Under the pieces are notes generated by a model. It searched no databases, was not told the origin of the DNA, and saw nothing but the letters and a program-made list of their open reading frames with translations. 64,000 nucleotides of DNA. It comes from an uncultured Actinomycetes bacterium (GTDB lineage Bacteria > Actinomycetota > Thermoleophilia > Solirubrobacterales > 70-9). The stretch spans positions 80,671 through 144,670 of the forward strand of contig CAWHSV010000008.1 in the NCBI GenBank assembly GCA_963832065.1. Direction: 5' to 3'. Each line of letters opens with the position of its first letter. Position 1 is the first letter of the stretch. Below are positions 4,939-47,526 of this stretch, in pieces. The translations under genes and the position numbers were made by a program.

Positions 4939-5652
4939 GTGCGCACGAAGGACGAGGTTCGCGAGGAGATCTGGAAGGCGATGGAGCGCGAGGGCGTCTC
5001 CCGCTTTCCCGGCGCCGAGGGACGGATCCCCAACTTCGCCGGGGCCAAGCTGGCGGCGGAGAAGCTCGCCGCACACCGCGCCTGGCGGCGCGCCCGGGTG
5101 ATCAAGGCCAACCCCGACTCGCCGCAGACGCACGCGCGGCGGATCGCCCTCGAAGAGGGCAGGACGGTGATCATGGCGGTGCCGCGGCTGCGCGACCCGC
5201 ACCCCTTCCGCGTCCTCGACCCGAAGAAGCTCTCGAAGGCGGCGATGAAAGAGGCGGCGACGATCAAGGGGGCGCTCAAGCACGGCCGCGTCGTCGCCCT
5301 CGACGATCTGCCGGAGATCGACTTCGTCCTCTGCGGCTCGGTCGCGGTGAACCTGAGCGGGGCGCGAATCGGCAAAGGCGGCGGCTACCACGACCTCGAG
5401 TACGGGATCCTCGTCGACGCCGGCAAGATCGACGACCACACCACCGTCGCCACCACCGTCCACCCGATCCAGATCCTGCGCCAGCACCTGATGTCGACCG
5501 CTCACGACCTGCCGGTCGACCTGATCGCGACGCCGCGGGCGGTGATCGACGTCGAGCGCCAGTACGAGCGGCCGCGGGGGATTCTCTGGGACCACCTGCA
5601 GCCGCCCCAGATCCGCGAGATCCCGGTGCTCGAACGCATGGGGTATGCCTGA
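4939..5652 (+). CDS. 5-formyltetrahydrofolate cyclo-ligase family protein
   Basis: C-terminal 237 codons of ORF 4192..5652: VIKANPDSPQ...VIMAVPRL...GSVAVNLSGARIGKGGGYHDLEYG. The GTG start at 4939 is a guess. Confidence 0.55.
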   Translation: MRTKDEVREEIWKAMEREGVSRFPGAEGRIPNFAGAKLAAEKLAAHRAWRRARVIKANPDSPQTHARRIALEEGRTVIMAVPRLRDPHPFRVLDPKKLSKAAMKEAATIKGALKHGRVVALDDLPEIDFVLCGSVAVNLSGARIGKGGGYHDLEYGILVDAGKIDDHTTVATTVHPIQILRQHLMSTAHDLPVDLIATPRAVIDVERQYERPRGILWDHLQPPQIREIPVLERMGYA

Positions 5653-6556
5653 GGCGACCGCCCGCGACCCGCGCATCGCCGCCGGCGCCGATTACGGCAA
5701 CCCGGCGCCGGCGTGGCCGCGGGTCCAGTGGCGCCGACATCTGCGGCGCGTGGCGCTGCCCGGCGCCGACGTCAACTACGTCGAGCTGGGCGAGGGCGAG
5801 CCGATCCTCTTCGTCCACGGCATCTCCGGCGCCTGGCAGAACTGGCTGGAGAACCTGCCCCACTTCGCCCGCGGCCACCGGGCGATAGCCCTCGACCTGC
5901 CCGGCTTCGGCGCCAGCCCGATGCCGAGCTGGGAAATCGATATGCCCGCCTACGGCCGCCTGCTGCACGACTTCTGCGAGAAGCTCGGGATCGAGGGAGC
6001 GACGATCGTCGGCAATTCGATGGGCGGCTTCATCGCGGTCGAGGCGGTGACGGCGTTGCCGGGGCGCTTCGAGAAGCTGGTGCTGGTCTCGGCAGCGGGC
6101 ATCCTCAACACTTGGAACCCGGAGGAGCGAGCGGTGGTGACCGCCTGGGCCTGGAAGACCTTCGGCCCGCACTACGCCGACCGGGGCCGGTGGATCGTCA
6201 CGCACCCGCGGGCGCGGGAGATCGTCTTCAGACCCTTCGTCCGCTACCCGGGCCATCTGCGGGCCGACCTCCTGTTCGAGCAGATCAGCAGCGGCCTGGA
6301 GCGCGCCGACGGCTTCGGCGACGCGCTGAAGGCGCTGATCCATCACGACATCCGCGAGCGCCTCGGCGAGATCCAGATGCCGACGATGATCGTCTGGGGC
6401 CAGTCCGACCGCGTGATCCCGCTATCGGCCGCCCTCAGCTACCACCGGCGTATCCCCCACTCGCGACTGGAGATCTTCGAGCGCACCGGGCACGTGCCGC
6501 AGCTGGAGCGGCCCCTCCGCTTCAACGCCCTCTTGGACGAGTTCCTCGCCGACTAA
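5645..6556 (+). CDS. Alpha/beta-fold hydrolase
   Basis: Intact 303-aa ORF with ILFVHGISGAWQNW, the nucleophile elbow VGNSMGG, and a C-terminal GHVPQLERP. Confidence 0.75.
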   Translation: MPEATARDPRIAAGADYGNPAPAWPRVQWRRHLRRVALPGADVNYVELGEGEPILFVHGISGAWQNWLENLPHFARGHRAIALDLPGFGASPMPSWEIDMPAYGRLLHDFCEKLGIEGATIVGNSMGGFIAVEAVTALPGRFEKLVLVSAAGILNTWNPEERAVVTAWAWKTFGPHYADRGRWIVTHPRAREIVFRPFVRYPGHLRADLLFEQISSGLERADGFGDALKALIHHDIRERLGEIQMPTMIVWGQSDRVIPLSAALSYHRRIPHSRLEIFERTGHVPQLERPLRFNALLDEFLAD

Positions 6557-6562
6557 CGCTAG

Positions 6563-8246
6563 CTAGTGCGTGACCGCGCCCTTTGACGCGGATGAAACGG
6601 TCGCCGCATACTTGGACATGACGCCGGAGCCGAAGGGGGACTCGGGCGCCCTGTACTCGGCGACGCGTTTGGCGATCTCCTCGTCCGAGAGGTCGACGTC
6701 CATGCGACGGGTATCGATGTCGAGGGTGATCTGGTCGCCCTCGCGGATCGCGGCGATCGGGCCGCCCTTGACGGCCTCCGGGGCGACGTGGCCGAACATC
6801 AGGCCGCGGGTGGCGCCGGAGAAACGGCCGTCGGTGATCAGGGCGACGCTCTCCCCCAGTCCCTCGCCGACGATCGCCGCCGTCACCTGGAGCATCTCGC
6901 GCATCCCGGGGCCGCCGACCGGGCCCTCGTTGCGGATGACGATGATGTCGCCGGCGTCGATTTGCTGTTCCTTGACGGCACGGAAGCATTCCTCTTCGGA
7001 CTCGAAGACGCGAGCGGGGCCGGTCTGCCTGCGGCGCTCGGTGCCGGCGACCTTGATCACGGCGCCTTCGGGAGCGAGGTTCCCGCCCATGATCGCCAGC
7101 CCCCCTTCTGCCTTGACCGGATCGGCGAGAGCGCGCACCACTTCCTGTCCCGGCGCCTCGGTCGCCAGCGCTGCCTCCTCGGCGATCGTGCGACCGGTTA
7201 CGGTGATCGCCTCGCCGCGCAGGATCCCGGCCTGGGCCAGCCGCTCGAGGATCACCGGCACGCCGCCGGCGGCGTAGAGGTCGGTGGCGATGAAGCGCCC
7301 GCCCGGCTTGAGGTCGGCGAGCAGCGGCGTGGCGCGGGAAATGCGGTCGAAGTCGGCCATCTCGAGCTCGATCCCAAGCTCGTGGCCCAGCGCGATCAGG
7401 TGCAGGACGCCGTTGGTCGAGCCGCCGGAGGCGCAGACGCAGGCGATCGCGTTTTCGAGCGAGTCGCGGGTGATCACCTTGCTGGGGGTGATGTCGTCGG
7501 CGAGGACGCGCAGCACCAGCTCGCCGATCTTCTCGGCGACGGTCTGCTTGTCTTCGGCTTCGGCCGGGACCATCGCCGAGCCGCCCGGACTGATTCCCAG
7601 CGCCTCGAAGGCGCAGGCCATCGTGTTGGCGGTGAACTGGCCGCCGCAGGCGCCGGCGCCGGGGCTGGCGACCCCCTCGAGCTCGCTCAGTTCCTCGTCG
7701 CTCATGTCGCCGGCGTTGTGGGCGCCGATCGCCTCGAAAATGTCGAGGATGGTGACGTCGCGGCCGTGCCAGTGGCCGGGGGCGATCGAGCCGCCGTAGA
7801 GCAGGACCGAGGGCACGTCGAGCCGGGCCAGCGCCATCGCGCAGCCGGGGATCGTCTTGTCGCAGGCGCAGAGGGCGACGATCGCGTCGAACTGGTAGCC
7901 GCGGGCCATCAGCTCGATCGAGTCGGCGATCACCTCGCGGCTGACCAGCGAAGCCTTCATGCCCTGGGTGCCCATCGTCACGCCGTCGGAGACGGCGACG
8001 GTGTTGAACTCCATCGGCGTGCCGCCGGCGGCGCGGACGCCCTCTTTGACGTGCTCGGCGAGCCCGCGTAGGTGGAAGTTGCAGGGCATCGCCTCGGTCC
8101 AGGTGTTGGCGATCCCGACCGTCGGCCGGCTCAGCGCCTCGTCGTCGAAGCCGATGCCCTTCATGTAGGCGCGCGAGTGGGCGCGGTCGGGCCCGTCGAA
8201 GACGGTGGCGGAGCGAGGACGCGGAAGCCTGGTCGCAGTGCTGCCG

Positions 8247-31788: not shown

Positions 31789-32282
31789 TCAGACGCAGTC
31801 TTGCGCTTCAGCAGGGCCATGCGGGCGACGGTGAGGGCGGCGTTGCGGCCCTGGTCGCGCTTGCCGCCGCCGGCGCGGGCCAGGGCCTGCTCCATGTTGT
31901 CGCAGGTGATGACGCCGAAGGCGCAGGGCACGCCGGTCTCGAGCTGGACGTCCTGGATGCCGCGGGCGGCCTCGGCGCAGACGAAGTCGTAGTGGTCGGT
32001 CTCGCCGCGGATCACGGCGCCGAGGCAGGCGACGCCGGCGAAGCGCGCCGTTCGGCAAAGAGCTTGGCGGCGAAGGGCAGCTCGTAGGCGCCGGGGACGT
32101 CGAGACCTGGGCGACCGAGCCGCTCGGGACCCCGGCGATCTCGAAGCCCTCGCTGGCGCCGTTGAGCAGCCGCTGGGCGAGGTCCTCGTAGAAGCGGCCG
32201 ACGCAGACGGCGAACGCCAGCGGCGAGAGCGTCGCTGCTCGCCCTCGGTGAACTCCTCCAGGAAGGCGCCGGCCTCAGCCAT
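31789..32282 (-). CDS. ribH: 6,7-dimethyl-8-ribityllumazine synthase, frameshifted
   Basis: ATG at 32282 ([11 protein letters not shown]). Fragments are [15 protein letters not shown] and [55 protein letters not shown]. The 3' end is uncertain. Confidence 0.8.
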
Positions 32283-33611
32283 TGCCGTCCTTGCCGTCCT
32301 TCCGCGTCGCGTTCCTCCTCGTCGTGGATCATCTCCTCGTCGAGCGCCAGGCCCTGGTGGTGCAGCGAGTGGCCCATCTTGTCGCGCTTGGCCCGCAGGT
32401 AGGCCTCGTTGTGCGGGTTGGGAACCGACTCGATCGGCACCTGCTCGCTGACCGAGAGCCCGTAGCCCTCGAGGCCGACGATCTTCTTCGGGTTGTTGGT
32501 GAGGATGCGGATGCTGGTCAGGCCGAGGTCGACGAGGATCTGGGCGCCGATGCCGTAGTCGCGCAGGTCGGCCGGCAGACCGAGCTTGAGGTTGGCCTCG
32601 ACGGTGTCGGCGCCCTCCTCCTGCAGCTTGTAGGCGCGCAGCTTGTTGAGCAGGCCGATGCCGCGACCCTCCTGGGAGAGGTAGAGCAGCACGCCCTGGC
32701 CCTCGCGCTCGATCATCGCCAGCGCCGCGGCCGAGCTGCTCGCCGCAGTCGCAGCGCATGCTGTGGAAGACGTCGCCGGTGAGGCACTCGCTGTGGACGC
32801 GGACGAGCACGTCCTCGGCCCCGTCGACCTCGCCCTTGACCATCGCCACGTGGTGTTTGTCGTCGACCAGCGAGCGGTAGCCGACGGCGGTGAAGTCGCC
32901 GAAGGCGGTCGGCAGCGCGGTGTCGACGACCCGCTCGACCAGCTTCTCGGTGCGGCGGCGGTAGGCGATCAGCTCGGCGACGGTGATCATCTTCAGGCCG
33001 TGCTTCTCGCAGTAGGGGATGAGGTCGGGGACGCGGGCCATGGTGCCGTCGTCGTTCATCACCTCGCAGATCACCCCGGCCGGGATGAGGCCGGCGAGTC
33101 GGGCGAGATCGACGCTGGCCTCGGTGTGGCCGGTGCGCTCGAGGACGCCCCCGTCCTTGGCCCGCAGCGGGAAACATGTGGCCGGGGACGACGATGTCGC
33201 GCGGGCCCGACTCGGGGTCGATCGCGACCTGGATCGTGTGGGCGCGGTCGTGGGCGGAGATGCCGGTGCTGACACCGCCAGCGGCCTCGATCGTGACCGT
33301 GAACGCGGTCTGCAGCGGCGCCTCGTTCTTGGCCGCCATCAGCCTGAGGCCGAGCTGCTCGCAGCGCTCCGCGGTCAGCGCCAGGCAGATCAGCCCGCGC
33401 GCCTCCTTGGCCATGAAGTTGACCGCCTCGGGCGTCGCGAACTGCGCCGCCATCACCAGGTCGCCCTCGTTCTCGCGGTCCTCGCCGTCGCAGACGACGA
33501 CCATGCGGCCGCGGCGGATCTCCTCGATCGCCTCCTCGATGGTCGCGAACGGGCTCTCGCCCCGCGCTCGGTCACCATGCGTTCGCTTTCGGTCTCGGTC
33601 TTGTGACTCAC
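32275..33611 (-). CDS. ribBA: Bifunctional 3,4-dihydroxy-2-butanone-4-phosphate synthase / GTP cyclohydrolase II, at least four frameshifts
   Basis: [13 protein letters not shown]...ISAHDR; PGHMFP|[17 protein letters not shown], with an extra base in the GGG run 33169-33171; [18 protein letters not shown]|...[29 protein letters not shown]. The GTG start overlaps the ribE TGA. Confidence 0.85.
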
Positions 33612-34214
33612 GCTCGCTCCTTTCCAGCGAATGGTGCCAGCAACCGCTCCACGTACTTGGCCACGATGTCGCACTCGACGTTCGGCTTGCTTCCCGGCTC
33701 GAGCTCGCCGAGGTTGGTTCGCTCCAGGGTCTCCGGGATCAGCGAGACCTCGACCCAGCCCTCGCCCAGCACGGCGATCGTGAGGCTGACGCCACTCGAG
33801 CGCGATCGAGCCCTTGTCGACGGCGTAGCGGAGCAGCTCGGGGGCGAGGGCTACGCGAACTCGCCGAGCGAATCCGTCGTCCTCGACGGAAGCAACCTCG
33901 CCGACGCCGTCGACGTGCCCCTGGAGGATGTGGCCCCCGAGGCGATCCGAAGCCCGCATCGCCAGCTCGAGGTTGACCCGACCGCCAGGCTCGACGCCGC
34001 CGAGCGCGGTCACCGCCAGCGTCTGGTTCATCGCCTCGGTCTCGAAACCGCCGTCGTCGATAGCGCTCGCCGTCAGGCAGACGCCGTCGACTGCGACCGA
34101 GTCGCCCAGGGCGATGTCGGGTCCGAGCCCCGTCGCGATTCGCAGACGCGCGCCCTCGCCGCCGCTCTCGACGGACTCGACTCGGCCTATGTCCTGGATC
34201 AAGCCCGTGAACAC
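33608..34214 (-). CDS. ribE: Riboflavin synthase (alpha chain), frameshifted
   Basis: MFTGLIQDIGRV...GDSVAVDGVCLT...GHILQGHVDG, then VDKGSIAL|DGVSLT in a second frame. The stop is at 33608-33610. Confidence 0.8.
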
Positions 34215-34215
34215 G

Positions 34216-35361
34216 TCACCACTCCTTGTAGCGGGCCGTGATCAGCGTGTCGTCGCCGACCTGCCTGGCGGTCGACTCCAAAGCGATCCGGCGCGCGGGC
34301 CCTGTCGCGGCAAGAACGGGGGCGCTGCGGGCGGGCTCGTCCTCGACCCCCCCTTCCCCCGCGCGAGAATCCGCCAACAGGATCGGCGCGACGAAGGTGC
34401 GGGACTGATCGAGCTGGTCGGCTTCTGCAAATGCGGTGGCCAGGCTTTGTCCGCCCTCCAAGAACAGACTGGTGATTTCGCGGCGGCCGAGGTCCGCCAG
34501 GGCCGAGACGATGCGGTCGGCGGGAGTCGCGCCTCCGGCGACGAGGATCTCGGCGCCGGCGTCTTCGAGCGCAGCCGCGCGGGTCGGATCGGCGTCGGGC
34601 GCGGCGACGACGAGCACCGGGGACCGGTCGAGGGTCGCGAGGAGCTGGGAGTCGAGCGGGAGGCGGGCTTGGGAGTCGAAGACGACGCGGAGCGGCTGGC
34701 GGGCATCGGCGTGGCGGGCCGTGAGGAGTGGGTCGTCGGCGAGGACGGTGCCGATGCCGACGGCGATCGCGTCGGTTTCGGCGCGCCACCTGTGTACGAG
34801 GTCACGGCTGGCCTCGCCGGAGATCCAGGGGGAGTCGCCGGCGGCGGTGGCGGTGCGGCCGTCGAGCGACATCGCCAGCTTCAGGGTGACCAGGGGCAGG
34901 CCGGTGCGGGCGTGCTTGCGAAAGGACTGGTTGAGCAGGCGGGCAGAAGCGGCCTCGGCGCCAGCCGCGAAGACGACCTCGACGCCGCCGTCGCGGAGGA
35001 TGCCCGGCCCGCGCCCCGCGGCCTTCTCGCTGGGGTCGTCGGAGGCGATCACGACCCGGGCTATCCCAGCCTCCAGAATCGCCTCCACGCACGGCGGCTG
35101 TCGCCCCTCGTGCGCGCACGGCTCCAACGTCACGTACATCGTCGCCCCCGCCGGCGTCTCTCCCCTCGCCTCGCAATCTCCCAGCGCCGCCCTCTCGGCA
35201 TGCAACCCCCCGAACTCGGCATGAAACCCCTCGCCGATGACCTCACCGCTTCGCACGAGGACAGCTCCCACAAGCGGGTTGGGACTGACGCGCCCCCTGC
35301 CATGCTCAGCCAGCCCCAAGGCCCGCTGCAGATGGATTCGATCCGTCTCGGTCAGCTGCAT
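34216..35361 (-). CDS. ribD: Bifunctional diaminohydroxyphosphoribosylaminopyrimidine deaminase / 5-amino-6-(5-phosphoribosylamino)uracil reductase
   Basis: Intact 381-aa ORF with SPNPLVGAV, HAERAAL, TLEPCAHEGRQPPC and LKLAMSLDGR. Confidence 0.9.
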   Translation of the reverse strand: MQLTETDRIHLQRALGLAEHGRGRVSPNPLVGAVLVRSGEVIGEGFHAEFGGLHAERAALGDCEARGETPAGATMYVTLEPCAHEGRQPPCVEAILEAGIARVVIASDDPSEKAAGRGPGILRDGGVEVVFAAGAEAASARLLNQSFRKHARTGLPLVTLKLAMSLDGRTATAAGDSPWISGEASRDLVHRWRAETDAIAVGIGTVLADDPLLTARHADARQPLRVVFDSQARLPLDSQLLATLDRSPVLVVAAPDADPTRAAALEDAGAEILVAGGATPADRIVSALADLGRREITSLFLEGGQSLATAFAEADQLDQSRTFVAPILLADSRAGEGGVEDEPARSAPVLAATGPARRIALESTARQVGDDTLITARYKEW

Positions 35362-37855: not shown

Positions 37856-38215
37856 CTACTCGTCGGCTCTGTCTTCGTCCTCGGTCGAACCGAGAAACTG
37901 AATCGCCGACTCATGATCGGTAACCGTTGAAACGTAGAAGTGCTCGAGAGAGCCTCGGACCGGCCGCGTGTCCGTTAGAGCGATGGCGCCTTCTTCGCGG
38001 AGCACTCTGGTGTGGTAGCTGATGTTGCTGACAGGAAGACAAAAGGCTCTACCGAGCTCGCTGGGACTTCGGGCCTCGCCGGCCCTGTGAAGCGCTCGGA
38101 GGATTCTGCGACGAAGCGGATGGTTCAAAGCCCTCAGCAGCTCGCCGCTGCGTGGCAGTTTGCCGCGCCTGGTCGGAAAGCTGGCGTTTCGGCCTTGAGA
38201 TTTTTCCACTTTCAC
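37856..38215 (-). CDS. ArsR-like winged-helix DNA-binding protein
   Basis: LLRALNHPLRRRILRALHRAGEARSPSELGRAFCLPVSNISYHTRVLREEGAI. GC is lower than in the flanks. The GTG start overlaps the upstream stop (TAGTG). Confidence 0.7.
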   Translation of the reverse strand: MKVEKSQGRNASFPTRRGKLPRSGELLRALNHPLRRRILRALHRAGEARSPSELGRAFCLPVSNISYHTRVLREEGAIALTDTRPVRGSLEHFYVSTVTDHESAIQFLGSTEDEDRADE

Positions 38216-38694
38216 TACTCACGCTGACCCCGGCGCCGTTGGCCAAGTCGAATACTGATTGCAGGACGAGGGATGCGAAACATCGTGAGAAGCTTGGAAG
38301 AGTGGCGACGACCTGCGTTCCCCTTGTGATTTTGATCGAGCTGCTCGGTAGTCCGCAGAGCCGACTGCACATATGGATCCCCTGAGAGTCCGGAACGATA
38401 GAAAGGTGGGGTTCCGGGCGGGCGGTGAGAGGCGTCGTGGATTACGCCCCCGGACCGCTCTAAGACCTGAGCGTGGTAGTAGACCTCGCTCAGAGTGAAC
38501 TCAGGCACCTCACACGCGATCTCGCGGGCGCTCAGGGGACGCTCGCTTCGGTCGAGGGTACGCAGGATTTCCCGGCGAATGGGATTTTCGAGGGCGCGCT
38601 GAAGCTTCGGCCCTAACGCTGCGGCGATCTCGTTCGGCAGCCTTCCCTCGCCACCTCCGAGACTCTTCTGATTCATAGTGGAAAGTGCAAGCAT
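38215..38694 (-). CDS. ArsR-like winged-helix DNA-binding protein with a basic C-terminal tail
   Basis: LQRALENPIRREILRTLDRSERPLSAREIACEVPEFTLSEVYYHAQVLERSGGV. Confidence 0.65.
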   Translation of the reverse strand: MLALSTMNQKSLGGGEGRLPNEIAAALGPKLQRALENPIRREILRTLDRSERPLSAREIACEVPEFTLSEVYYHAQVLERSGGVIHDASHRPPGTPPFYRSGLSGDPYVQSALRTTEQLDQNHKGNAGRRHSSKLLTMFRIPRPAISIRLGQRRRGQRE

Positions 38695-38822
38695 GTCCTA
38701 GATTTGTCCGAATCCCGTGAGCAGTAAGGGATGATCGTGCAGTCTAGGGCGGCAGAAACGCTTTACGAAGGCAGTCTGTACCAGCAATCAGCCGTTAACC
38801 AGCGTCCGCCCTGACAGGGGAC

Positions 38823-39599
38823 CTAGCGAGGCTGCTGACAGAGATAGACGGCCTTGGTGTGGAGATCTTCATCGAGAACGGGGTGAAGATCGCCGTCCAG
38901 CTCGCCGAAGACGCCCAGGGATCGAAGTCCCACCGCGTCGATCGCGGTCAACACCTCGTCTTCGGAGAAGTGACGCTGGCGATGGACATGCGCCGTGCCC
39001 GACTCGCCTTTCGCCTCGAACCTTGCCCGGTTCATCGAGCCCGGCGCGACGTCCTCCGGGGACATCTGCCCGTTCCAGACGAAGCGTCTTCCGTTCTGCT
39101 CGACGACGTGTTCGTTGCTGAAGAAGGTCCGGTAGGTGGCGAGAGTGTTGAGGTCAAAGAGCACGATCCCGCTGGGCGCCAGGTTCCGGAGCATTCCCGC
39201 CAGGGAAGCTTTGAGCTCCTCGACGCTGAGCAGGTAGTTGATCGCGTCGTTCACGGCCCAGATCAGATCGAACTCGCCCAGAGCGGGCAGCTGACGCATG
39301 TCGGCCTCAAGCAGCGTCGCGCCCTCGCCGACCTTGGAACGAGCGACATCGAGCATCGCCGGGGAGATGTCGCAGGCGGTTACGCGCCAGCCACGGTCGA
39401 GCATCGGCAGGAAGCTGAGCCCGGTCCCGCAGCCGACGTCCAGCAGTCGATCGCCTTCGAGGCCCATCTCGTGTGCCTTGGCCAAAAGCCGACCGGTCCA
39501 CCGCTCGTACATGTACCCACGGTTGAAGTCGTCATATGACGAGGCGTAGGCATCGTAAGCCTCCTTTGCCGATCCGCCGGCTTCCCCCGGAGCCATCAT
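38823..39599 (-). CDS. Class I SAM-dependent methyltransferase (258 aa), translationally coupled to the upstream E1-like gene
   Basis: The ATG at 39597-39599 overlaps the upstream TGA (ATGA). Motif I is RLLDVGCGTGLSFLPMLDRGWRVTACDISPAML. The ORF-track entry 38823..40340 over-extends the N-terminus. Confidence 0.8.
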   Translation of the reverse strand: MMAPGEAGGSAKEAYDAYASSYDDFNRGYMYERWTGRLLAKAHEMGLEGDRLLDVGCGTGLSFLPMLDRGWRVTACDISPAMLDVARSKVGEGATLLEADMRQLPALGEFDLIWAVNDAINYLLSVEELKASLAGMLRNLAPSGIVLFDLNTLATYRTFFSNEHVVEQNGRRFVWNGQMSPEDVAPGSMNRARFEAKGESGTAHVHRQRHFSEDEVLTAIDAVGLRSLGVFGELDGDLHPVLDEDLHTKAVYLCQQPR

Positions 39600-40678
39600 C
39601 TCGTCGGGGCGGGTTGAAGCTGCGAGCAGACCGGGCAGGTGGGCTCCGGCGCCACCTCGAAGCGCTCGACTTCCATTGTGCGCAGGTCGAAGAGGTAGCC
39701 CGCGCCCAGCATCGGCGGCGCGACCAGCCCAGTCAGGAAGTGCATTGCTTCCGCGCCGACCAAACCACCGACCAGCCCACACGCGGGGCCCAGGGTCGCG
39801 GCCGGCGAGGGCTTGGCGCGGCGTTGGGCGATCGCCACGTCGTAGAGCGGGTATTCCCGGCGGTAGGCGATGTCCTGGCAGCCGAAGCAGCCGGTCTGGC
39901 CCGGGACGTAGAGCGGCCCGGCTCGGGCCATGGGCGGGAAGTGGCTCATCGCTATGTAGGGGACCCCCGCCTCGAAGCAGGCTGCGTTGCACCAGTACTC
40001 GATCTCGTGCGCAGGCCAGTCGGCGGCATCGACCACGAGGTCGGCGCCGGCGATGAAGGCGGCCAGCTGCGCCTGGCTCTCGACACGTTGCGCGACCGCC
40101 TCCACCTCGATCCTCGAGTTGAAGGCGCGAAGTCGCTCCGCCGCCGCTTCGACCTTGAGCCGGCCGATGTCCGCCTCGGCGTACTGGATCTGGCGATTGA
40201 GATTGCTCTCCTCCACGCGGTCGCCGTCGATCAGGCGGAGCGCTCCAACCCCGCAGCAGGCCAGCTCCCAGGCGACGCGCCCGCCGAGCCCTCCCACGCC
40301 GAGCACGACGACGCGAGCCTCTCGCAGCCGAGTCTGGCATTCCGATGGCGTTACCCCGCCGGTGGAGCTGAGGTCGCTGAAATATCGAAGCTGGCGGTCG
40401 AAGCGGGCAAGGTCGGCCGGCGGTACCCGGTCGTCGTCGTCGGCGTCCTCGAGCAGGTCCATCTCCTGCATCTGCGCGATCACGTCTGCGACCTCCCGCG
40501 GGCCAAAGCGCGCGTCCAGCTCGTCCCTCGAAGCACTCCCGTCGAGGGCCTGCAAAAGGTCCCTTTCGCGCTCGCCGGGCCGTTCGATGCGGATGTCGTC
40601 GGCGCTGGACCGCATGAGCACGAGGTCGCCGTTAGGCGCCTCGATCTGCTCGATCGTCCTTTTCAGGCGGGGTCGCAT
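39596..40678 (-). CDS. E1/ThiF/MoeB/MccB-like adenylyltransferase with an N-terminal ~90-aa PqqD/RRE-like peptide-binding domain
   Basis: RFDRQLRYF, the nucleotide loop VVVLGVGGLGGRVAWELACCGVG, DGDRVEESNLNRQ, and the zinc motif CFGC...CPVC. The N-terminus has beta strands followed by LLQALDGSASRDELDARF...VADVIAQMQEMDLLE. Confidence 0.85.
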   Translation of the reverse strand: MRPRLKRTIEQIEAPNGDLVLMRSSADDIRIERPGERERDLLQALDGSASRDELDARFGPREVADVIAQMQEMDLLEDADDDDRVPPADLARFDRQLRYFSDLSSTGGVTPSECQTRLREARVVVLGVGGLGGRVAWELACCGVGALRLIDGDRVEESNLNRQIQYAEADIGRLKVEAAAERLRAFNSRIEVEAVAQRVESQAQLAAFIAGADLVVDAADWPAHEIEYWCNAACFEAGVPYIAMSHFPPMARAGPLYVPGQTGCFGCQDIAYRREYPLYDVAIAQRRAKPSPAATLGPACGLVGGLVGAEAMHFLTGLVAPPMLGAGYLFDLRTMEVERFEVAPEPTCPVCSQLQPAPTR

Positions 40679-40724
40679 TACTTTCTACACTGTTTGTTAG
40701 TAGGGGAATTTCTTTGACACTGCT

Positions 40725-40744
40725 CCCGGGTCAGGCGACCCGGG
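40725..40744 (-). promoter_or_regulatory. Intercistronic stem-loop between the precursor genes and the E1-like gene (possible attenuator or mRNA-stabilising hairpin)
   Basis: CCCGGGTC-loop(4)-GACCCGGG, a perfect 8-bp GC-rich stem. It lies 18 nt after the second peptide stop and 46 nt before the E1-like ATG. No U-tract follows. Confidence 0.5.
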
Positions 40745-40762
40745 ATGCAGCAGAAACTCCAC

Positions 40763-40822
40763 TCAGCCGCCCTTCGACGTGCTGACCGCTGGAAACGTCG
40801 CCTTCGTGGCATCGAATTTCAC
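40763..40822 (-). CDS. Candidate RiPP precursor peptide 2 (19 aa): MKFDATKATFPAVSTSKGG
   Basis: GGAGGTG (40829-40835), a 6-nt spacer, then a GTG start, 19 codons and TGA. It is a paralogue of 40901..40960. It does not appear in the ORF track. Confidence 0.55.
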   Translation of the reverse strand: MKFDATKATFPAVSTSKGG

Positions 40823-40900
40823 CCTGCTCACCTCCTCTGGAAGAAGCCCCAGGCGGAGGCAGCCCCCCGGTAGCGATGCCGTCGGAGGGCCACCACGCGC

Positions 40901-40960
40901 TCAGTTGCCCTTCGTCGTGCCCATCGCGGGCAATGTCGCCTTCGTGGCATCGAATTTCAC
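40901..40960 (-). CDS. Candidate RiPP precursor peptide 1 (19 aa): MKFDATKATLPAMGTTKGN
   Basis: GGAGGTG (40967-40973), a 6-nt spacer, then a GTG start, 19 codons and TGA. The C-terminal residue is Asn. It does not appear in the ORF track. Confidence 0.55.
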   Translation of the reverse strand: MKFDATKATLPAMGTTKGN

Positions 40961-41120
40961 CCTGCTCACCTCCCTTCAACCCTGTGAGAGTCTGAGCAAG
41001 AATGACTTATCACTGGCAGCTTTAGCCACCGATGACGAAATAAGTCTGCATTTTGGAAGGAAAACCGATTACTGTCCGCTAGCCGCAGCCATTCAGGCGT
41101 CACTGAGAAGTGGAGGCAAC

Positions 41121-42374
41121 GTGGGTCCTCAAGAGAAAGATGCCGCGCCGCTGTTTTTGATCGAAGCCAAGCTGGCCAAGGCGCTCGCCAACCCCTGGCG
41201 CAACCGGATCTTGATGGAGCTTCACCTCCAATCGATGAGCCCAAAGCAGTTCAGCGAAAGGTTCGGCGGCGACCTGACGCTCATTGCACGTTATTTCCGC
41301 GAGCTCAAGGAGTGGGACTTCGTCGAAGTTGCGGAAGAACTGCGCGGTGGTAAACGGCGCGGTGCTATCGAGAAGGTATATCGAGCCACTCAGCGTGTTC
41401 ACTTCGATACGGCAACCTGGGAGCTCTTACCGCGTTACCTGAGAGCGGAGTGCTCTGGGGCGATTTTGCAGAGCCTCATCCTTCGCATCGTCCAAGCGAT
41501 CGAAGGGGGGACGTTTGACGCTGAGGTGGATCGCCATCTTTCTTGGCGAACACTTCCCTTTGACCGACGGGCATGGACGGAATACGTCACGCGGCTGGAC
41601 GAGGTTCTCGCCTGGGTCGCAGAGCTGGAGGCGGAATCGGCCGCACGCATCGCGGCAACGGAAAGCGAGGCCATACCATTGACCGTCGCGCTCTTGGCCT
41701 TTCGGTCGCCGTCTGAGCCTGTTGAGATTTCCAACTCTTTACAAGAGAGCTCAGAGCTTGAGCAGGCAAGTCAGCCTCCCAGCGCGCCACCATTTCTTAT
41801 CAGTGCGCAAATGGCAAAAGCTTTGGCGAATCCATGGCGCAACCAGATCTTGACGGAGCTTCACGTCCGCCCGATGAGCCCCAATCAGTTCGCTAAAGAG
41901 CGCGGGGGCCCAGAGCTGGCAACCATCGCACGCTATTTTCGCCAGCTAAAAGAATGGGGGTACCTCGAGGTAGCGGAAGAACTGCGAGGAGGGAGGAGGC
42001 GAGGAGGAGTCGAGAAGGTCTATCGCGCGATGCCGCGTGCCCATTTCGACATAGCTATGTGGGAACGTCTTCCCCGCCACCTGAGAGCTGTAGGGTCGGG
42101 GAAGACCTTGGACCACCTCATCCGTCGGATCGATCAGGCAGTCACATTGGATACGTTCGATGCCGATTTGGATCGGCATCTCTCATGGAAAGCAATCTGG
42201 CTGGACCGGCAAGCGTGGATCGAGTACGTCATCCGGCTCGATGAGCTCCTGACCTGGACGAATGACCTCGAAATCCAGGCGGCGCAACGCTTGGCCGAGA
42301 TGAGAGAGAAGCCGACCCCGACAACGGTTGCGCTTATGGCGTTTCGTGCGCCCGACCGTCGTATCCTGGATTGA
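41121..42374 (+). CDS. Protein made of two tandem copies of an ArsR-like winged-helix module plus a helical domain
   Basis: AKALANPWRNRILMELH...ARYFRELKEWDFVEVAEELRGGKRRG.IEKVYRA...DRHLSWR recurs as AKALANPWRNQILTELH...ARYFRQLKEWGYLEVAEELRGGRRRG.VEKVYRA...DRHLSWK. The proposed start is GTG 41121, after GGAGG. The ORF-track start at 40779 reads through the repeats. Confidence 0.7.
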   Translation: MGPQEKDAAPLFLIEAKLAKALANPWRNRILMELHLQSMSPKQFSERFGGDLTLIARYFRELKEWDFVEVAEELRGGKRRGAIEKVYRATQRVHFDTATWELLPRYLRAECSGAILQSLILRIVQAIEGGTFDAEVDRHLSWRTLPFDRRAWTEYVTRLDEVLAWVAELEAESAARIAATESEAIPLTVALLAFRSPSEPVEISNSLQESSELEQASQPPSAPPFLISAQMAKALANPWRNQILTELHVRPMSPNQFAKERGGPELATIARYFRQLKEWGYLEVAEELRGGRRRGGVEKVYRAMPRAHFDIAMWERLPRHLRAVGSGKTLDHLIRRIDQAVTLDTFDADLDRHLSWKAIWLDRQAWIEYVIRLDELLTWTNDLEIQAAQRLAEMREKPTPTTVALMAFRAPDRRILD

Positions 42375-44276: not shown

Positions 44277-44963
44277 TCAGGCTGCGCCGGCTGCGGCGGC
44301 GATCGCCGTGTAGGCGGCGGCGGGGTCGTCGGCGCCGAAGACGGCGGAACCGGCGACGAAGAGGGAGGCGCCAGCCGCGGCGACGGCGCCGGCGGTGGCG
44401 GTGTCGATGCCGCCATCGACCTCGATCCGGGCCTCGCCGGCAAGCGAACGTAGGCGCTCGACCTTGGCCGGGGAGGACGCGATGAAGGCCTGGCCGCCCC
44501 AGCCGGGGTTGACGGTCATGCAGAGGGCGATGTCGGCGTAGCCACGCAGCTCCCCCACCGCCTCGGCCGGCGTGCCGGGGTTGAGGGCGACCCCGGCCAG
44601 GCAGCCGAGCTCGCGGATCGCGTGCAGGGTGCGGTTGGCGTGCGGGGTCGCCTCCTCATGGAAGGTGATCGAGTCGGCGCCCGCCCGCGCGAACTCGTCG
44701 ATTTGGCGCTCGGGCGTCTCGATCATCAGGTGCACGTCGACCGCCCCGCCCGCGGCGTGGACCTGGTCGGCGATGCCGCCGAGGACCAGGGGGCCGATCG
44801 TGATCGGCGGCACGAAATGGCCGTCCATCACGTCGAAGTGGATCACCCGCGCGCCGGCGTCCATCACCTCTTCGACCTTCGACCCTAGCTTCGCGAAATC
44901 GGCCGAGAGGATCGACGGGGCGACCCGCGGCGACTCGATCAATTCCCGCATCCGCTCGCTCAT
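44277..44963 (-). CDS. rpe: Ribulose-phosphate 3-epimerase
   Basis: Intact 228-aa ORF with PSILSADF, HFDVMDGHFVP, HLMI and GWGGQAF. Confidence 0.9.
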   Translation of the reverse strand: MSERMRELIESPRVAPSILSADFAKLGSKVEEVMDAGARVIHFDVMDGHFVPPITIGPLVLGGIADQVHAAGGAVDVHLMIETPERQIDEFARAGADSITFHEEATPHANRTLHAIRELGCLAGVALNPGTPAEAVGELRGYADIALCMTVNPGWGGQAFIASSPAKVERLRSLAGEARIEVDGGIDTATAGAVAAAGASLFVAGSAVFGADDPAAAYTAIAAAAGAA

Positions 44964-45004
44964 CGGCGTGAGCCTACTGAGCGCGTCCGGACGCGCTCAG
45001 GCGC

Positions 45005-45256
45005 TCAGGCGGCTCGCAGCATCGAGGAGCCGCAGGCCTGGCACTGCATGTCCTCGGTGTTGCTCATGCGGGCGATCGTCTGGTGTTCGCCGCAGTTGGG
45101 GCATTGGGAGACGAGTTCGAAGCGGCTGAGGCAGTTGACGCAGCGCAACCGGCCCGGCAGCTGGGTCGGGCGCAGCCAGGGCTCGCCGCAGCTCGGGCAG
45201 GGGGCCCGGCCGAGGGTGGTTCCTTCCCCAGATCCGACGTCTCCGGTCTCGCTCAT
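45005..45256 (-). CDS. Small zinc-ribbon protein (83 aa), function unknown
   Basis: Four CxxC pairs: CPSC, CVNC, CPNC and CQAC. Confidence 0.5.
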   Translation of the reverse strand: MSETGDVGSGEGTTLGRAPCPSCGEPWLRPTQLPGRLRCVNCLSRFELVSQCPNCGEHQTIARMSNTEDMQCQACGSSMLRAA

Positions 45257-45259
45257 CGT

Positions 45260-46621
45260 CTAATCATGCCGCCTCAGGCGGCCGACGAAGAAGCCGGTGG
45301 TGCGGTCGCGGTCCGGGCGCAGCTGCAGGCAGCGCGGCTCGAGCGGGGAGGCGAGCTCCGGCGCGCGAGCGCCGAGGTCCTCCAGCTCCAGCGGCGGCGC
45401 CTCCCCCGCCACCGAGGCGGCGAGCAGGGCCGCGACCCTGTCCTCGTTCTCGCGGCGGGAGATCGTGCAGGTCGAGTAGACGAGGATGCCGCCGGGGCGC
45501 AGGGCACGGGCGGCGCCGAGCAGGGCGCGCGCCTGGACGCCGACGAGCCGTTCGATCGCCTTCGGCGATTTGCGCCAGCGGGCATCGGGACGCGAGGCGA
45601 GCGCGCCGAGGTCCGAACAGGGCGCGTCGAGCAGGACGCGGTCGAAACCGGATGCGACCTCGGCGGCGGTGGCGTCGGCCTCGACCACGGTGATGCTGCG
45701 CAGGTCGAGGCGACCGGCCTGGGCTGCGACTTCGCCGGCCCGGGTGGGGTCGAGCTCGACCGAGATCAGCTCGCCACGATCGCCCATCCGCGCCGCGATC
45801 TGACCGGTCTTAATCCCCGGACCGGCGCAGAGGTCGAGCACCTGCTCCCCCTCCTGCGGGTCGAGCACCTCGACCACGGCGGCGGAGCCACGGCTCTGCG
45901 GGGTCAGCTCGCCGCCCGCGACCATCGTCGCGACGATGTCGCCGGTGCGCCCGGAGATCACGATCGTCTCCGCCGTGGCCAGCGGCCAGCCTCCCCCTGC
46001 CGGGGCGGCCTCCACCCCGGCGGCGCGCAGCTTCGCCAGCGCCGCCTCGCGGTCGCCGCTCGCCCTCATCGCCACCTCCGCCGGCTCGTTCACGGCGGCG
46101 AGCAGGGATCGCGCGCGCTCCGGCCCCAGCTCCTCCCACCACATGCGGGTCAGCCAAGCTGGGGCCGAGTGGGCGACCGCGGCGGCGTCCGCGGAGGAGT
46201 CGTCCTCCAGCAGCGCCGCCGTCAGCTCCGCCCGCTCGCGCGTGGCGCGGCGAAGCACGGCGTTGACGAGGCCCGCGGCGTGGCCGGCGCCGCCCGCCTT
46301 GGTCAGCTCGACCGCCTGGTCGACGGCGGCGTGGTCGGGGGTGCCGTCGGCGAAGAGCAGCTCGTAGAGGCCGAGTCGCAGGGCGGCCAGCACCGGCGGG
46401 TCGAGCAGCCGCGTCGAGCGACCGGCAAGGCGTTCGATCGCGGCGTCGAGGGTGGCGCGGTGCTGGACCGTCCCGTAGGCGAGCCGCTGGGCCTGGGCCC
46501 GCTCCCGTCCCTCGACCCCGAGCCGCTCGGCGCCGGCGCGGAAGGCGCGCTCGGTGTAGGCGTCCTGCTCGAAGGTCTCCCGGATCGTCGCGAAGGCGAG
46601 CGAGCGGGCCGGCGCGATCAC
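45260..46621 (-). CDS. rsmB: 16S rRNA (cytosine967-C5)-methyltransferase RsmB
   Basis: The GTG start overlaps the fmt stop (GTGA). It has an N-terminal NusB-like domain, then VLDLCAGPGIKTG, DAPCSDLG and YSTCTI. Confidence 0.85.
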   Translation of the reverse strand: MIAPARSLAFATIRETFEQDAYTERAFRAGAERLGVEGRERAQAQRLAYGTVQHRATLDAAIERLAGRSTRLLDPPVLAALRLGLYELLFADGTPDHAAVDQAVELTKAGGAGHAAGLVNAVLRRATRERAELTAALLEDDSSADAAAVAHSAPAWLTRMWWEELGPERARSLLAAVNEPAEVAMRASGDREAALAKLRAAGVEAAPAGGGWPLATAETIVISGRTGDIVATMVAGGELTPQSRGSAAVVEVLDPQEGEQVLDLCAGPGIKTGQIAARMGDRGELISVELDPTRAGEVAAQAGRLDLRSITVVEADATAAEVASGFDRVLLDAPCSDLGALASRPDARWRKSPKAIERLVGVQARALLGAARALRPGGILVYSTCTISRRENEDRVAALLAASVAGEAPPLELEDLGARAPELASPLEPRCLQLRPDRDRTTGFFVGRLRRHD

Positions 46622-47526
46622 GGCAACTTCGGCAGCTGGTGGCCGCGCAGATAGGCGTCCGCCGGCATCGGCTTGCCGCCTGGTGGCTGCACCGCCTCGA
46701 GCCGCAGGGCGCCGCGACAGCAGCCGACCAGGAGCGCCCCCCACTCCGACTTGACGGCGCCGGTCTGGACGCTGACGTCGACAGCGCGAGCGCAGCGGAC
46801 GCCGAGCCGCTCGCCTCCCGCCATCTCCAGGTAGGCGCCGATGTGCGGAGTCAGGGCGCGCACCGTCGCCGCCAGCTCGCCCGCCGGCCGAGCCGGGTCG
46901 AGGCGGCGCTCCTCCGGCGCGATCTTCTCGGCGTACGTGGCCTCCGCCTCGTTCTGCTCGGTGAACTCGAGCACGCCCTCGGCCTCGAGGTTGAGGGCGT
47001 GCGCCAACAGCTCGCCGCCGAGCCCGGCCAATGTCGAGGAGAGCGCCTCGAAGTCTGTGTCGGCGTCGATCGGCGCCTCCGCGGTCAGCGCCACCGGCCC
47101 CGAGTCGAGCCCGGCGGTCAGCTTCATCACGCAGACCCCGGTGCGCCGGTCGCAGGCCATGATCGCCCGCTCGATCGGCGCTGCCCCGCGCCAGCGCGGC
47201 AGCAGCGAGGGATGGACGTTGAGCATCAGGTGCTCGGAGAGCAGCGGCTCGCGGATCAGCTGGCCGAAGGCGCAGACGACCACCGCCCGCGGTCGCGCCG
47301 CGGCGATGCGCTCGCGCGCCGCCTCGGCGTTGACGTCCTCCGCCTGCAGCAGCTCGATCCCCAGCTCGGTAGCGGCCGTGGCGACCGGCGGTGGCGTCAG
47401 CTTGCGGCCGCGCCCCTGCGGACGGTCCGGGGGCGTGACCACGAGCGCCGGCCGGTGCTCGGAGCCGGCCAGCCGCCGCAGGACGGTGGCGGCGAAGTCG
47501 GAGGTGCCGAGGTAGACCGTGTTCAC
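46618..47526 (-). CDS. fmt: Methionyl-tRNA formyltransferase
   Basis: Intact 302-aa ORF with MNTVYLGTSDFA, NVHPSLLPRWRGAAPI and a C-terminal beta-barrel domain. Confidence 0.9.
   Translation of the reverse strand: MNTVYLGTSDFAATVLRRLAGSEHRPALVVTPPDRPQGRGRKLTPPPVATAATELGIELLQAEDVNAEAARERIAAARPRAVVVCAFGQLIREPLLSEHLMLNVHPSLLPRWRGAAPIERAIMACDRRTGVCVMKLTAGLDSGPVALTAEAPIDADTDFEALSSTLAGLGGELLAHALNLEAEGVLEFTEQNEAEATYAEKIAPEERRLDPARPAGELAATVRALTPHIGAYLEMAGGERLGVRCARAVDVSVQTGAVKSEWGALLVGCCRGALRLEAVQPPGGKPMPADAYLRGHQLPKLP

Follow-up and report, generated by a model that had tools for sequence, protein, structure and literature searches.

What two open reading frames (ORFs) of only 19 codons, lying in tandem ahead of an E1-like adenylyltransferase gene, are made for is the question raised by a locus on contig CAWHSV010000008.1 of an uncultured actinobacterium of the order Solirubrobacterales. 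The stretch analyzed here (the window) is 64,000 nt long, and the locus runs along its minus strand from position 40973 to 38823, where the two mini-ORFs are followed by the gene for the E1-like enzyme and by a gene for an S-adenosylmethionine (SAM) methyltransferase. A first-pass annotation of the letters had suggested that these genes may represent a new family of RiPPs (peptides that are synthesized ribosomally and modified post-translationally), and this proposal largely stands. The same trio recurs across soil Solirubrobacterales genomes, and for this reason it very likely constitutes an undescribed family of enzymatically modified ribosomal peptides; literature searches on ThiF-type RiPPs and on Solirubrobacter found no description of this peptide/E1/methyltransferase family, nor does a curated model cover it. 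We read the locus as a minimal ThiF-type RiPP cassette, a reading that, together with the mechanism proposed below, we hold to be moderately probable.

Related loci were collected from one genome per species (GTDB species representatives), which yielded 324 loci with relatives of the E1-like enzyme. The best 80 of these 324, which carry L numbers below, were compared and make 81 with the window; all are from metagenome-assembled genomes of Solirubrobacterales or Thermoleophilia, in agreement with the earlier guess of a high-GC actinobacterial host. When 1.84 billion representative proteins were searched exhaustively, the E1 relatives fell into 434 clusters (50% identity, E ≤ 1e-30). To find peptides, a hidden Markov model (HMM) was trained on the first ones and applied to the six-frame ORF tails of the loci. 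The two mini-ORFs of the window and their Shine-Dalgarno (SD) sequences are as follows.

40967..40973, minus strand: SD sequence GGAGGTG of putative precursor gene 1, 6 nt before its GTG.
40901..40960, minus strand: putative precursor gene 1, GTG (40960-40958), 18 codons, and TGA; encodes MKFDATKATLPAMGTTKGN, with a C-terminal Asn; peptide-HMM E-value 2.8e-6.
40829..40835, minus strand: SD sequence GGAGGTG of putative precursor gene 2, read directly.
40763..40822, minus strand: putative precursor gene 2, GTG (40822-40820), 18 codons, and TGA; encodes MKFDATKATFPAVSTSKGG, with a C-terminal Gly-Gly (the family consensus); peptide-HMM E-value 4.7e-8.

Both mini-ORFs are contained in direct repeats of 74 nt each (40762-40835 and 40900-40973) that are 88% identical. 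Read on the minus strand, each copy consists of GGAGGTG, the 6-nt spacer AGCAGG, GTG, 18 further codons, and TGA, and every coordinate that had been assigned to these elements holds. The first 39 nt, from the SD sequence through codon 9, are identical in the two copies, a match seen in none of 100 shuffles, and the nine differences all fall in the second half, two of them being synonymous and seven being spread over five replaced residues. The gap between the second mini-ORF and the ATG of the E1 gene (40678) is 84 nt. As had been noticed, mechanical ORF calling misses both mini-ORFs: the only ORFs listed across the repeats are an 82-aa ORF (40731-40979, minus strand) and an over-extended 531-aa ORF (40779-42374, plus strand), both in other frames. 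An Rfam scan of positions 38000-42000 at E ≤ 1 returned a single chance match to a microRNA and no family on the repeats; therefore, no known RNA accounts for them.

SD-preceded peptides of 17–21 aa (mostly 19 aa) were found on the E1 strand in 39 of the 81 loci, just upstream of the E1 gene except in three cases, in which they lie 1.2–1.6 kb away. The expectation that short SD-preceded ORFs would stand upstream of homologous E1 genes was thus borne out in these loci, and in about half of the loci no adjacent peptide was present. Within clade A, the group of 16 loci to which the window belongs, the peptide occurs in all 15 loci that have upstream sequence (L005 starts at a contig end), a GG(G/A)GGTGAG element precedes the peptide genes, and near-identical copies of peptide 2 stand upstream of the E1 genes in L001–L008. 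The family pattern is M-(K/Q/T)-(F/L/I)-x6-(L/M/I/V)-P-x2-(S/A/G)-(T/I)-x-K-x-(G/N), and the Pro at position −8 and the Lys at position −2 are kept in nearly all peptides, whose E1 partners range from about 40% identical to identical. In clade A, the differences per codon position are 0.26, 0.22, and 0.48, the third position changing about twice as often as the first two; TGA, TAG, and TAA are all used as stops while the length is kept, and the peptide sequences track the E1 tree. These patterns show that the mini-ORFs are real genes, namely, conserved protein-coding genes upstream of homologous E1 genes. The public gene calls of one related locus (L081) miss the peptide, and no NCBIfam model matched the 20–21-aa peptides scanned. 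In L002, a second peptide copy (3843-3902) has ATC in place of ATG or GTG, with a TTG two codons in that would give 17 aa; it is either a gene with a non-canonical start or a decaying copy.

Each peptide gene of the window is followed by a potential hairpin.

40858..40894, minus strand: 12-bp GC-rich stem-loop after putative precursor gene 1 (z only −1.5).
40720..40753, minus strand: strong stem-loop CUGCUGCAUCCCGGGUC-GCCU-GACCCGGGAGCAG between putative precursor gene 2 and the E1 gene (z = −5.0), a candidate attenuator or transcript stabilizer.

When 22 peptide genes lying more than 60 nt from the next gene were surveyed, nearly all were followed by a 10–14-bp GC-rich hairpin of unrelated sequence, some with a T-run; one exception was the first peptide gene of L002 (z = +0.7). 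A simple promoter and terminator scan gave nothing useful, the hairpins lacking the T-runs that the scan requires. Short SD-preceded ORFs with a strong hairpin after each, upstream of an enzyme gene, would also be expected if the mini-ORFs were regulatory leader peptides, that is, upstream ORFs, equipped with attenuator hairpins, by which the expression of E1 is adjusted, and not substrates. Against this, the sequence, length, and C-terminal motif of the peptides are kept across E1s that are only about 40% identical, and the peptides persist when another gene separates them from E1 (L006, L062, and L078) or when they are nested in a fusion gene (see below). Moreover, the gene has been duplicated with a variable C-terminal half, and the enzyme carries a predicted peptide-binding domain. 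We consider the leader-peptide explanation very improbable.

The enzyme gene next to the peptides comprises the following parts.

39596-40678, minus strand: E1-like ORF, 360 aa.
40409..40678, minus strand: predicted RiPP recognition element (RRE), or peptide-clamp domain, N-terminal ~90 aa (AlphaFold2 model, Foldseek, and N-terminal profile).
39596..40396, minus strand: E1/ThiF-type adenylation domain (PF00899), residues 95-360 with both CxxC zinc motifs, plus the stop codon.

The C-terminal part had been described as a ThiF/MoeB/MccB-type adenylation domain, and the database matches bear this out: PF00899 (ThiF) matched residues 95-350 of the 360-aa protein at 1.1e-51, and the best sequence match in the PDB was MccB of E. 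coli (1.9e-35), followed by MoeB (8e-26), ThiF (1e-24), and PaaA (2e-24). GxGGxG, NLNRQ, K175, DAAD (in which D220 is aligned with D214 of MccB), and both CxxC pairs are invariant in the 16 homologues compared, and on the strength of these ATP-site and zinc motifs the enzyme looks catalytically competent, unlike the TOMM (thiazole/oxazole-modified microcin) docking proteins. The N-terminal domain had been taken for a PqqD-type RRE. As an RRE it is well matched: in the AlphaFold2 model (overall predicted local distance difference test [pLDDT] 83, above 90 in the N-terminal domain), residues 1-78 form strands at 3-5, 10-13, 19-22, and 29-31 and helices at 36-44, 51-58, and 60-72, and Foldseek superposed the complete protein, with its N-terminus, on MccB and PaaA across some 355–365 columns (TM-score with MccB ~0.67), whereas ThiF and MoeB covered only about 268 columns. 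A profile of the N-terminal 97 positions had PaaA residues 6-109 as its single significant PDB match (E-value 4.3e-4), and the Pfam model PF21475 (PaaA-like_N) matched two family members weakly. The Pfam PqqD model itself gave no match.

These comparisons also bear on whether the E1-like protein is simply an ordinary MoeB or ThiF serving a MoaD or ThiS encoded elsewhere, with the repeats being incidental. The highest raw NCBIfam scores were indeed those of the MoeB and ThiF models, but both lie far below their cut-offs (137 bits versus 449 and 129 versus 275, respectively). The protein is closer to MccB and has an extra N-terminal RRE absent from ThiF and MoeB, and the peptide, methyltransferase, and regulator genes co-vary with it. 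The adenylation domain with zinc-binding CxxC pairs and the Gly-Gly tail of the substrate recall the ThiF-ThiS and MoeB-MoaD pairs; however, the 19-aa partner is not a beta-grasp protein, and no sulfur-transfer partner is linked. The probability left to this explanation is close to nil. Likeness to anti-phage E1-E2 systems was considered as well: PADLOC gave only generic Rossmann matches to the E1-E2 protein Cap2 (residues ~115-230), and these systems (Cap2 of the cyclic-oligonucleotide-based anti-phage signaling system, Bil, and 6A-MBL) were rejected, there being no fused or adjacent E2 or JAB domain.

The only NCBIfam model passed by the 360-aa protein was the domain model TIGR03882, at 51.3 bits against a cut-off of 36.9, in a partial match to residues 249-355. 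This explains why relatives are named “TOMM precursor leader peptide-binding protein” by the Prokaryotic Genome Annotation Pipeline. TOMM docking proteins do share an E1-like fold with a peptide-binding N-terminus, but here the match is confined to the C-terminal part, the motifs for ATP binding and catalysis show no degeneration, and no YcaO Pfam match was found among the scanned neighbors in the window (ORFs of at least 90 aa without low third-position GC) or in L081 and L083–L089. The name is probably a misnomer, and with “molybdopterin-synthase adenylyltransferase” it is one of the two labels under which public annotation hides the family.

The third member of the trio begins where the E1 gene ends.

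38823..39599, minus strand: class I SAM methyltransferase, 258 aa; its ATG overlaps the TGA of the E1 gene (ATGA, 39596-39599).

This ORF matched class I methyltransferase Pfam models at 7e-19, and its closest named relatives are amine N-methyltransferases, namely, the daptide methyltransferase, CypM, and sugar N,N-dimethyltransferases. It adjoins the E1 gene in 14 of the 16 clade A loci; the methyltransferase match starts at the last E1 codon in L001, L002, and L020, and the ATGA overlap thus appears to be conserved. The coupling of the methyltransferase to the enzyme, which the first-pass annotation had read from the overlap, gained a second line of evidence from distant relatives. At least 7 of the 434 clusters are methyltransferase-RRE-E1 fusions of 625–687 aa with the methyltransferase at the N-terminus, and the fused methyltransferase is 42% identical to that of the window over its full length (E-value 9e-52). 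Seven fusion loci were fetched, six of which have a divergent HTH_20 protein, the upstream gene in L088 having no Pfam match. In three of them (L083, L087, and L089), a gene for an extracytoplasmic function (ECF) sigma factor adjoins the winged-helix gene, the sigma gene being first and the HTH_20 gene taking the usual anti-sigma position.

The peptide accompanies the fusions too. L085 has a 20-aa peptide, MGIQKTSRRLAPAASTRKGV, with an SD sequence and a hairpin, upstream of the fusion gene, and in five other loci a gene for a 20–21-aa peptide is nested inside the fusion ORF, in the +1 frame of the linker between the methyltransferase and the RRE.

L083, 6809-6874: nested peptide gene, +1 frame of the fusion ORF.
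L084, 3053-3118: nested peptide gene, +1 frame.
L086, 2387-2449: nested peptide gene, +1 frame.
L087, 3803-3868: nested peptide gene, +1 frame.
L089, 2367-2432: nested peptide gene, +1 frame.

The nested genes bring an AAGGAGG ribosome-binding site of their own and are followed by a hairpin; one of them encodes MLKIEKLERPIVPAVAITKAN. The closest pair, L083 and L084, has six differences, every one of which leaves the peptide unchanged but alters the fusion protein; between more distant pairs, about half of the substitutions are synonymous in the peptide frame and all are nonsynonymous in the fusion frame. The fusion frame of L083, L084, and L087 contains neither ATG nor GTG nor TTG between the nested peptide and the first conserved RRE residues, so that E1 can only be produced there as part of the fusion. 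An out-of-frame precursor gene inside the linker between a methyltransferase and an E1 is an unusual arrangement that annotation pipelines cannot detect.

The locus and its relatives thus combine an intact adenylation domain, a predicted N-terminal RRE fused to it, and a conserved short precursor gene, as in ThiF-type RiPP systems. The last residue of the peptides is G much more often than N, followed by A, V, and C. Gly terminates about 37 of the 45 family peptides, peptide 2 and other clade A peptides among them; Asn ends occur in peptide 1, in peptides of L002, L027, L031, and L069, and in 4 of the 6 distinct fusion-clade peptides, and L002 pairs ...GTTKGN with ...STSKGG as the window does.

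This distribution bears on the parallel with microcin C- and pantocin-type pathways that had been drawn for the locus. In a Trojan horse of the microcin C type, the C-terminal Asn would be converted through a succinimide to a peptidyl-nucleotide phosphoramidate, and the methyltransferase, likened to MccD or to the methyltransferase domain of Bacillus amyloliquefaciens MccB, would decorate the nucleotide or the phosphate. Like MccB and MccA of microcin C7 in E. coli, the locus has an N-terminal RRE clamp fused to an E1 adenylation domain, a very short unannotated precursor gene directly upstream, and a hairpin between the precursor and enzyme genes, and MccB is the closest solved relative of the enzyme in both sequence and predicted fold. 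The pairing of MccB with a methyltransferase fold recurs, and at 19 residues the precursor of B. amyloliquefaciens has the same length (PMC11256085). However, the nitrogen–phosphorus bond of microcin C requires a succinimide formed from a C-terminal Asn (PMC11256085, PMC12596934), which Gly cannot form, and because most of the peptides end in Gly, microcin C chemistry cannot be general for the family; A and V termini also occur. Identity to MccB is only about 25%, the host belongs to Thermoleophilia, and the methyltransferase is nearest to amine N-methyltransferases and stands N-terminal to E1 when fused. As had been noted for the immediate neighborhood, no gene like MccC (the exporter) or MccE and MccF (immunity) is adjacent, none being found within ~10 kb in the window or in L081 and L083–L089. 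The family, in short, offers the MccB-like synthetase of microcin C systems, not their Asn-ending precursor as a consensus or their MccC, MccE, or MccF genes; the parallel is one of architecture and not of chemistry. We judge a microcin C mechanism for the family to be quite improbable, although it may apply to the Asn-terminated members, including peptide 1. PaaA and PaaP of the pantocin A pathway share the combination of an RRE with a ThiF-like domain (PaaA ranked second after MccB in Foldseek and gave the N-terminal profile match), but what PaaA activates is the side chain of a Glu within a precursor of 30 aa, and no PaaB- or PaaC-like gene accompanies the family. The pantocin type was ruled out, the Glu-Glu-Asn core being absent from all of the family peptides.

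We propose the following mechanism. The two 19-aa peptides would be translated from strong ribosome-binding sites, and the hairpin after each gene would probably raise the ratio of peptide to enzyme transcripts. The conserved N-terminal half, MKFDATKAT.P, would dock on the RRE of the 360-aa enzyme, as suggested by homology to MccB and PaaA; the tail S-T-x-K-G-(G/N) would thread into the E1 active site, where, judging by the intact catalytic motifs, the C-terminal carboxylate could be adenylated with ATP. A nucleophile would then resolve the acyl-adenylate. The preferred candidate is Lys(−2), two residues from the end, whose attack would produce a 13-membered C-terminal Lys-x-X macrolactam; this step is tentative, and we give it less credence than the cassette as a whole. 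The translationally coupled methyltransferase would next methylate a remaining amine, either the N-terminus or Lys, and the divergent tandem winged-helix regulator and two downstream ArsR-like proteins, described below, would control expression. The fixed distance from Lys to the C-terminus, combined with a variable last residue, is best explained in one of two ways: by attack of the Lys N-zeta or by Lys being the residue that E1 recognizes, as the Arg of the R-G-G tail is in ubiquitin.

The known ThiF-type RiPP enzymes GrcB, EnfB, and IndF adenylate a carboxylate, on which a nucleophile of the same molecule then acts (PMC12596934, PMC12150305). These enzymes of Lactobacillales resemble the present one in their minimal clusters of a short precursor and an RRE-ThiF enzyme and in that the carboxylate is at or near the C-terminus and the nucleophile a few residues away, and their mechanism was the template for the Lys(−2) lactam. 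They differ in their precursor motifs (WWIVI, NWYFI, and E...C), in having transporters and often a peptidase, and in their Firmicutes hosts, and a methyltransferase of the present type is neither coupled nor fused to any of them. Free primary amines are likewise able to trap the acyl-adenylate of EnfB (PMC11256085), and in the fosfazinomycin pathway FzmA/FzmH places hydrazine on the C-terminus of an unannotated 22-aa peptide, with N-methylation following (PMC13622209). That pathway (FzmA/FzmH/FzmZ) likewise uses RRE-fused, ATP-dependent activation of the C-terminus, then a SAM N-methyltransferase, and no dedicated protease, but its activating enzyme is asparagine-synthetase-like and hydrazine and phosphonate genes belong to it, and the likeness is an analogy only. 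On the basis of the fixed Lys distance, amine capture by EnfB, and the FzmA/FzmH precedent, our order of preference is intramolecular cyclization with N-methylation, then transfer to an external nucleophile, and then microcin C-like nucleotidylation.

Several observations weigh against the proposed cassette and mechanism. In 44 of the 80 related loci (clade B2), no peptide was found within ~4 kb of E1; a neighboring peptide is therefore no universal feature, and the substrate of E1 may be a different one. Clade B, the larger sister clade, lacks the methyltransferase, and a lactam that uses up Lys(−2) would leave the methyltransferase without a defined target. One peptide, that of L011, has Arg at position −2. 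Finally, neither a transporter or exporter nor a protease or immunity gene was found within ~10 kb in the window or in L081 and L083–L089, which would be unusual for an exported natural product.

Tails ending in R-G-G or G-G typify the substrates of E1 enzymes, and the (K/R)-x-G tail of the peptides (K-G-G in clade A) resembles them. This suggests a different course, in which no cyclization occurs and the adenylated C-terminus is passed to an external amine, sulfide, or lysine of a target protein. The outcome could be C-terminal amidation on a scaffold peptide followed by N-methylation, a thiocarboxylate as in a miniature ThiS or MoaD, or a miniature ubiquitin-like tag. The lack of an exporter or protease, the placing of clade B E1s in conserved housekeeping synteny with an ECF-sigma-like promoter motif and often without a private peptide, and the likeness of the methyltransferase to amine N-methyltransferases would all fit such a transfer, as would the interception of the EnfB adenylate and the FzmA/FzmH reaction described above. 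Yet the genes linked to E1 in the window, L081, and L083–L089 include none for a rhodanese, cysteine desulfurase, E2, JAMM peptidase, or amine-forming enzyme, a 19-aa peptide cannot form a beta-grasp fold, and the fixed Lys(−2) and Pro(−8) are no better explained than by a lactam. We regard transfer to an external acceptor as unlikely, albeit less so than nucleotidylation. A bolder form of it would make the peptides miniature ubiquitin-tail-like carriers or tags in the core, ECF-sigma/ArsR-regulated physiology of Solirubrobacterales and not antibiotic precursors at all; their C-terminal Gly may then be activated for transfer to a protein lysine, to an amine of a lipid or metabolite, or to sulfur. 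We think this a long shot, on a par with the microcin C mechanism.

How the cassette is embedded differs between the clades. The clade A unit consists of the divergent tandem winged-helix regulator gene, a single peptide gene or a pair of them, the genes for E1 and the methyltransferase, and two ArsR-like genes. In clade B, E1 has a fixed housekeeping neighborhood consisting of a ferritin-like gene, a gene for a family-4 uracil-DNA glycosylase (UDG), E1, a lipoprotein gene, and a TMEM175 gene. In clade B1 (21 loci), the peptide is present, and 19 of the 21 loci also have a divergently inserted gene for a winged-helix protein of 210–280 aa; in clade B2 (44 loci), neither the peptide nor the winged-helix insertion occurs, and a search of the UDG-E1 spacer of the B2 loci for a peptide found none. 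The two groups interleave on the E1 tree, and the mean identity of the RRE is the same in both (0.706 each); therefore, the B2 enzymes still seem to need a peptide-binding domain. In the B2 spacer (e.g., L016, 3868-4000), we observed a conserved GGAAC-N17/18-CGGTCT motif resembling ECF-sigma promoters, which is consistent with the ECF sigma genes beside the winged-helix gene in L083, L087, and L089. The family-4-type UDG gene is the fixed upstream neighbor of the clade B E1 (L009–L080), and in L062, L069, and L078 the peptide gene lies upstream of the UDG gene and not of the E1 gene. The clade B E1s themselves (L009–L080) carry an acidic tail of 12–25 residues after the last CxxC, which ends in Gly in 52 of 64 (e.g., ...KETAGG and ...EAVEG), whereas those of clade A, including that of the window, have short tails without a Gly end. 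For the E1 active site, the Gly-terminated tail could serve as a substrate in cis or as a pseudo-substrate, and if the peptides were carriers, it may substitute for the peptide or compete with it in clade B.

Three winged-helix genes flank the trio in the window.

41121..42374, plus strand: tandem winged-helix regulator, 417 aa, divergent; likely start GTG at 41121, with the SD sequence GGAGG at 41112-41116.
38215..38694, minus strand: ArsR/SdpR-like winged-helix protein, 159 aa (HTH_20), downstream of the methyltransferase gene.
37856..38215, minus strand: ArsR-family protein, 119 aa (HTH_20 and HTH_5); its start shares base 38215 with the end of the preceding ORF.

The mechanical ORF that begins at 40779 over-extends the regulator by 114 codons, across the peptide genes; the length given here equals that of a database protein, P0121. 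The regulator arose as a module of ArsR/Phr-like winged helix and dimerization domain duplicated internally in tandem, and its AlphaFold2 model matched Kfla_6221, PH1932, and Phr by Foldseek, each half being an ordinary extended winged helix of the ArsR/Phr type in which nothing points to a special ligand domain. The two halves may together work as a covalent pseudo-dimer; in clade B and in the fusion loci, the winged-helix proteins are of a single module (204–282 aa). A gene of this regulator family is upstream in 33 loci, all of which have the peptide, and among the 47 loci without it 3 have the peptide (Fisher p = 2e-19); the divergent regulator probably controls the peptide promoter. The divergent intergenic region (40974-41120) and its clade A equivalents contain two conserved blocks, approximately TTTTCCYCCAAARTG and GCCAGCAATAAAGCAYYCTTG. 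Both are situated upstream of the first peptide gene and are candidates for operator or promoter elements used by the regulator. The gene for the 159-aa protein is kept downstream in L001, L002, L004, L005, and L007, and by this synteny the protein may be part of the functional unit; that for the 119-aa protein is conserved in close relatives.

The other neighbors within ~10 kb in the window are riboflavin genes, genes for a GT2 glycosyltransferase, a Na+/H+ exchanger, Rpe, and RsmB, and winged-helix genes. The cassette sits among housekeeping genes (32012-35361 and 44277-46744) that include those for GTP cyclohydrolase II, RibD, ribulose-phosphate 3-epimerase, and RsmB. Clade A neighborhoods differ between genomes, which suggests that the cassette is a small mobile insertion and not part of a larger biosynthetic cluster. 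That the cassette lacks genes for export, proteolysis, and immunity and is tightly coupled to winged-helix regulators and ECF sigma factors hints that the role is signaling or physiological rather than antibiotic.

Reviews of ThiF-type RiPPs recognize only the microcin C, pantocin, GRC, enterofaecin, and Ind families, and the supplement of a global survey of RRE-ThiF enzymes does not mention these taxa. The locus represents a new, large, and taxonomically restricted family within a known kind of system, the ThiF-type RiPPs; its range does not extend beyond soil Actinomycetota that have been little studied. The known chemistries of RRE-fused ThiF-like enzymes number just five (phosphoramidate, indolizidinone, thiolactone, cyclic imide, and indolylamide), and every new family studied so far has given a new reaction. 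The substrate motif, P-x3-(S/A)-(T/I)-x-K-x-(G/N)-COOH, is sharply defined, and the cassette is small enough to be reconstituted from one synthetic 19-mer and two enzymes.

A distant RRE-E1 relative in the cultured actinobacterium Planotetraspora silvatica (L090, BOOQ01000015.1) has a called 41-aa gene ending in ...VCSNSTGN (5209-5334) downstream of it and a major facilitator superfamily transporter gene nearby, and a UDG-superfamily gene lies two genes away from it (5997-6683). This seems to be an actinobacterial cluster of its own, closer in kind to microcin C.

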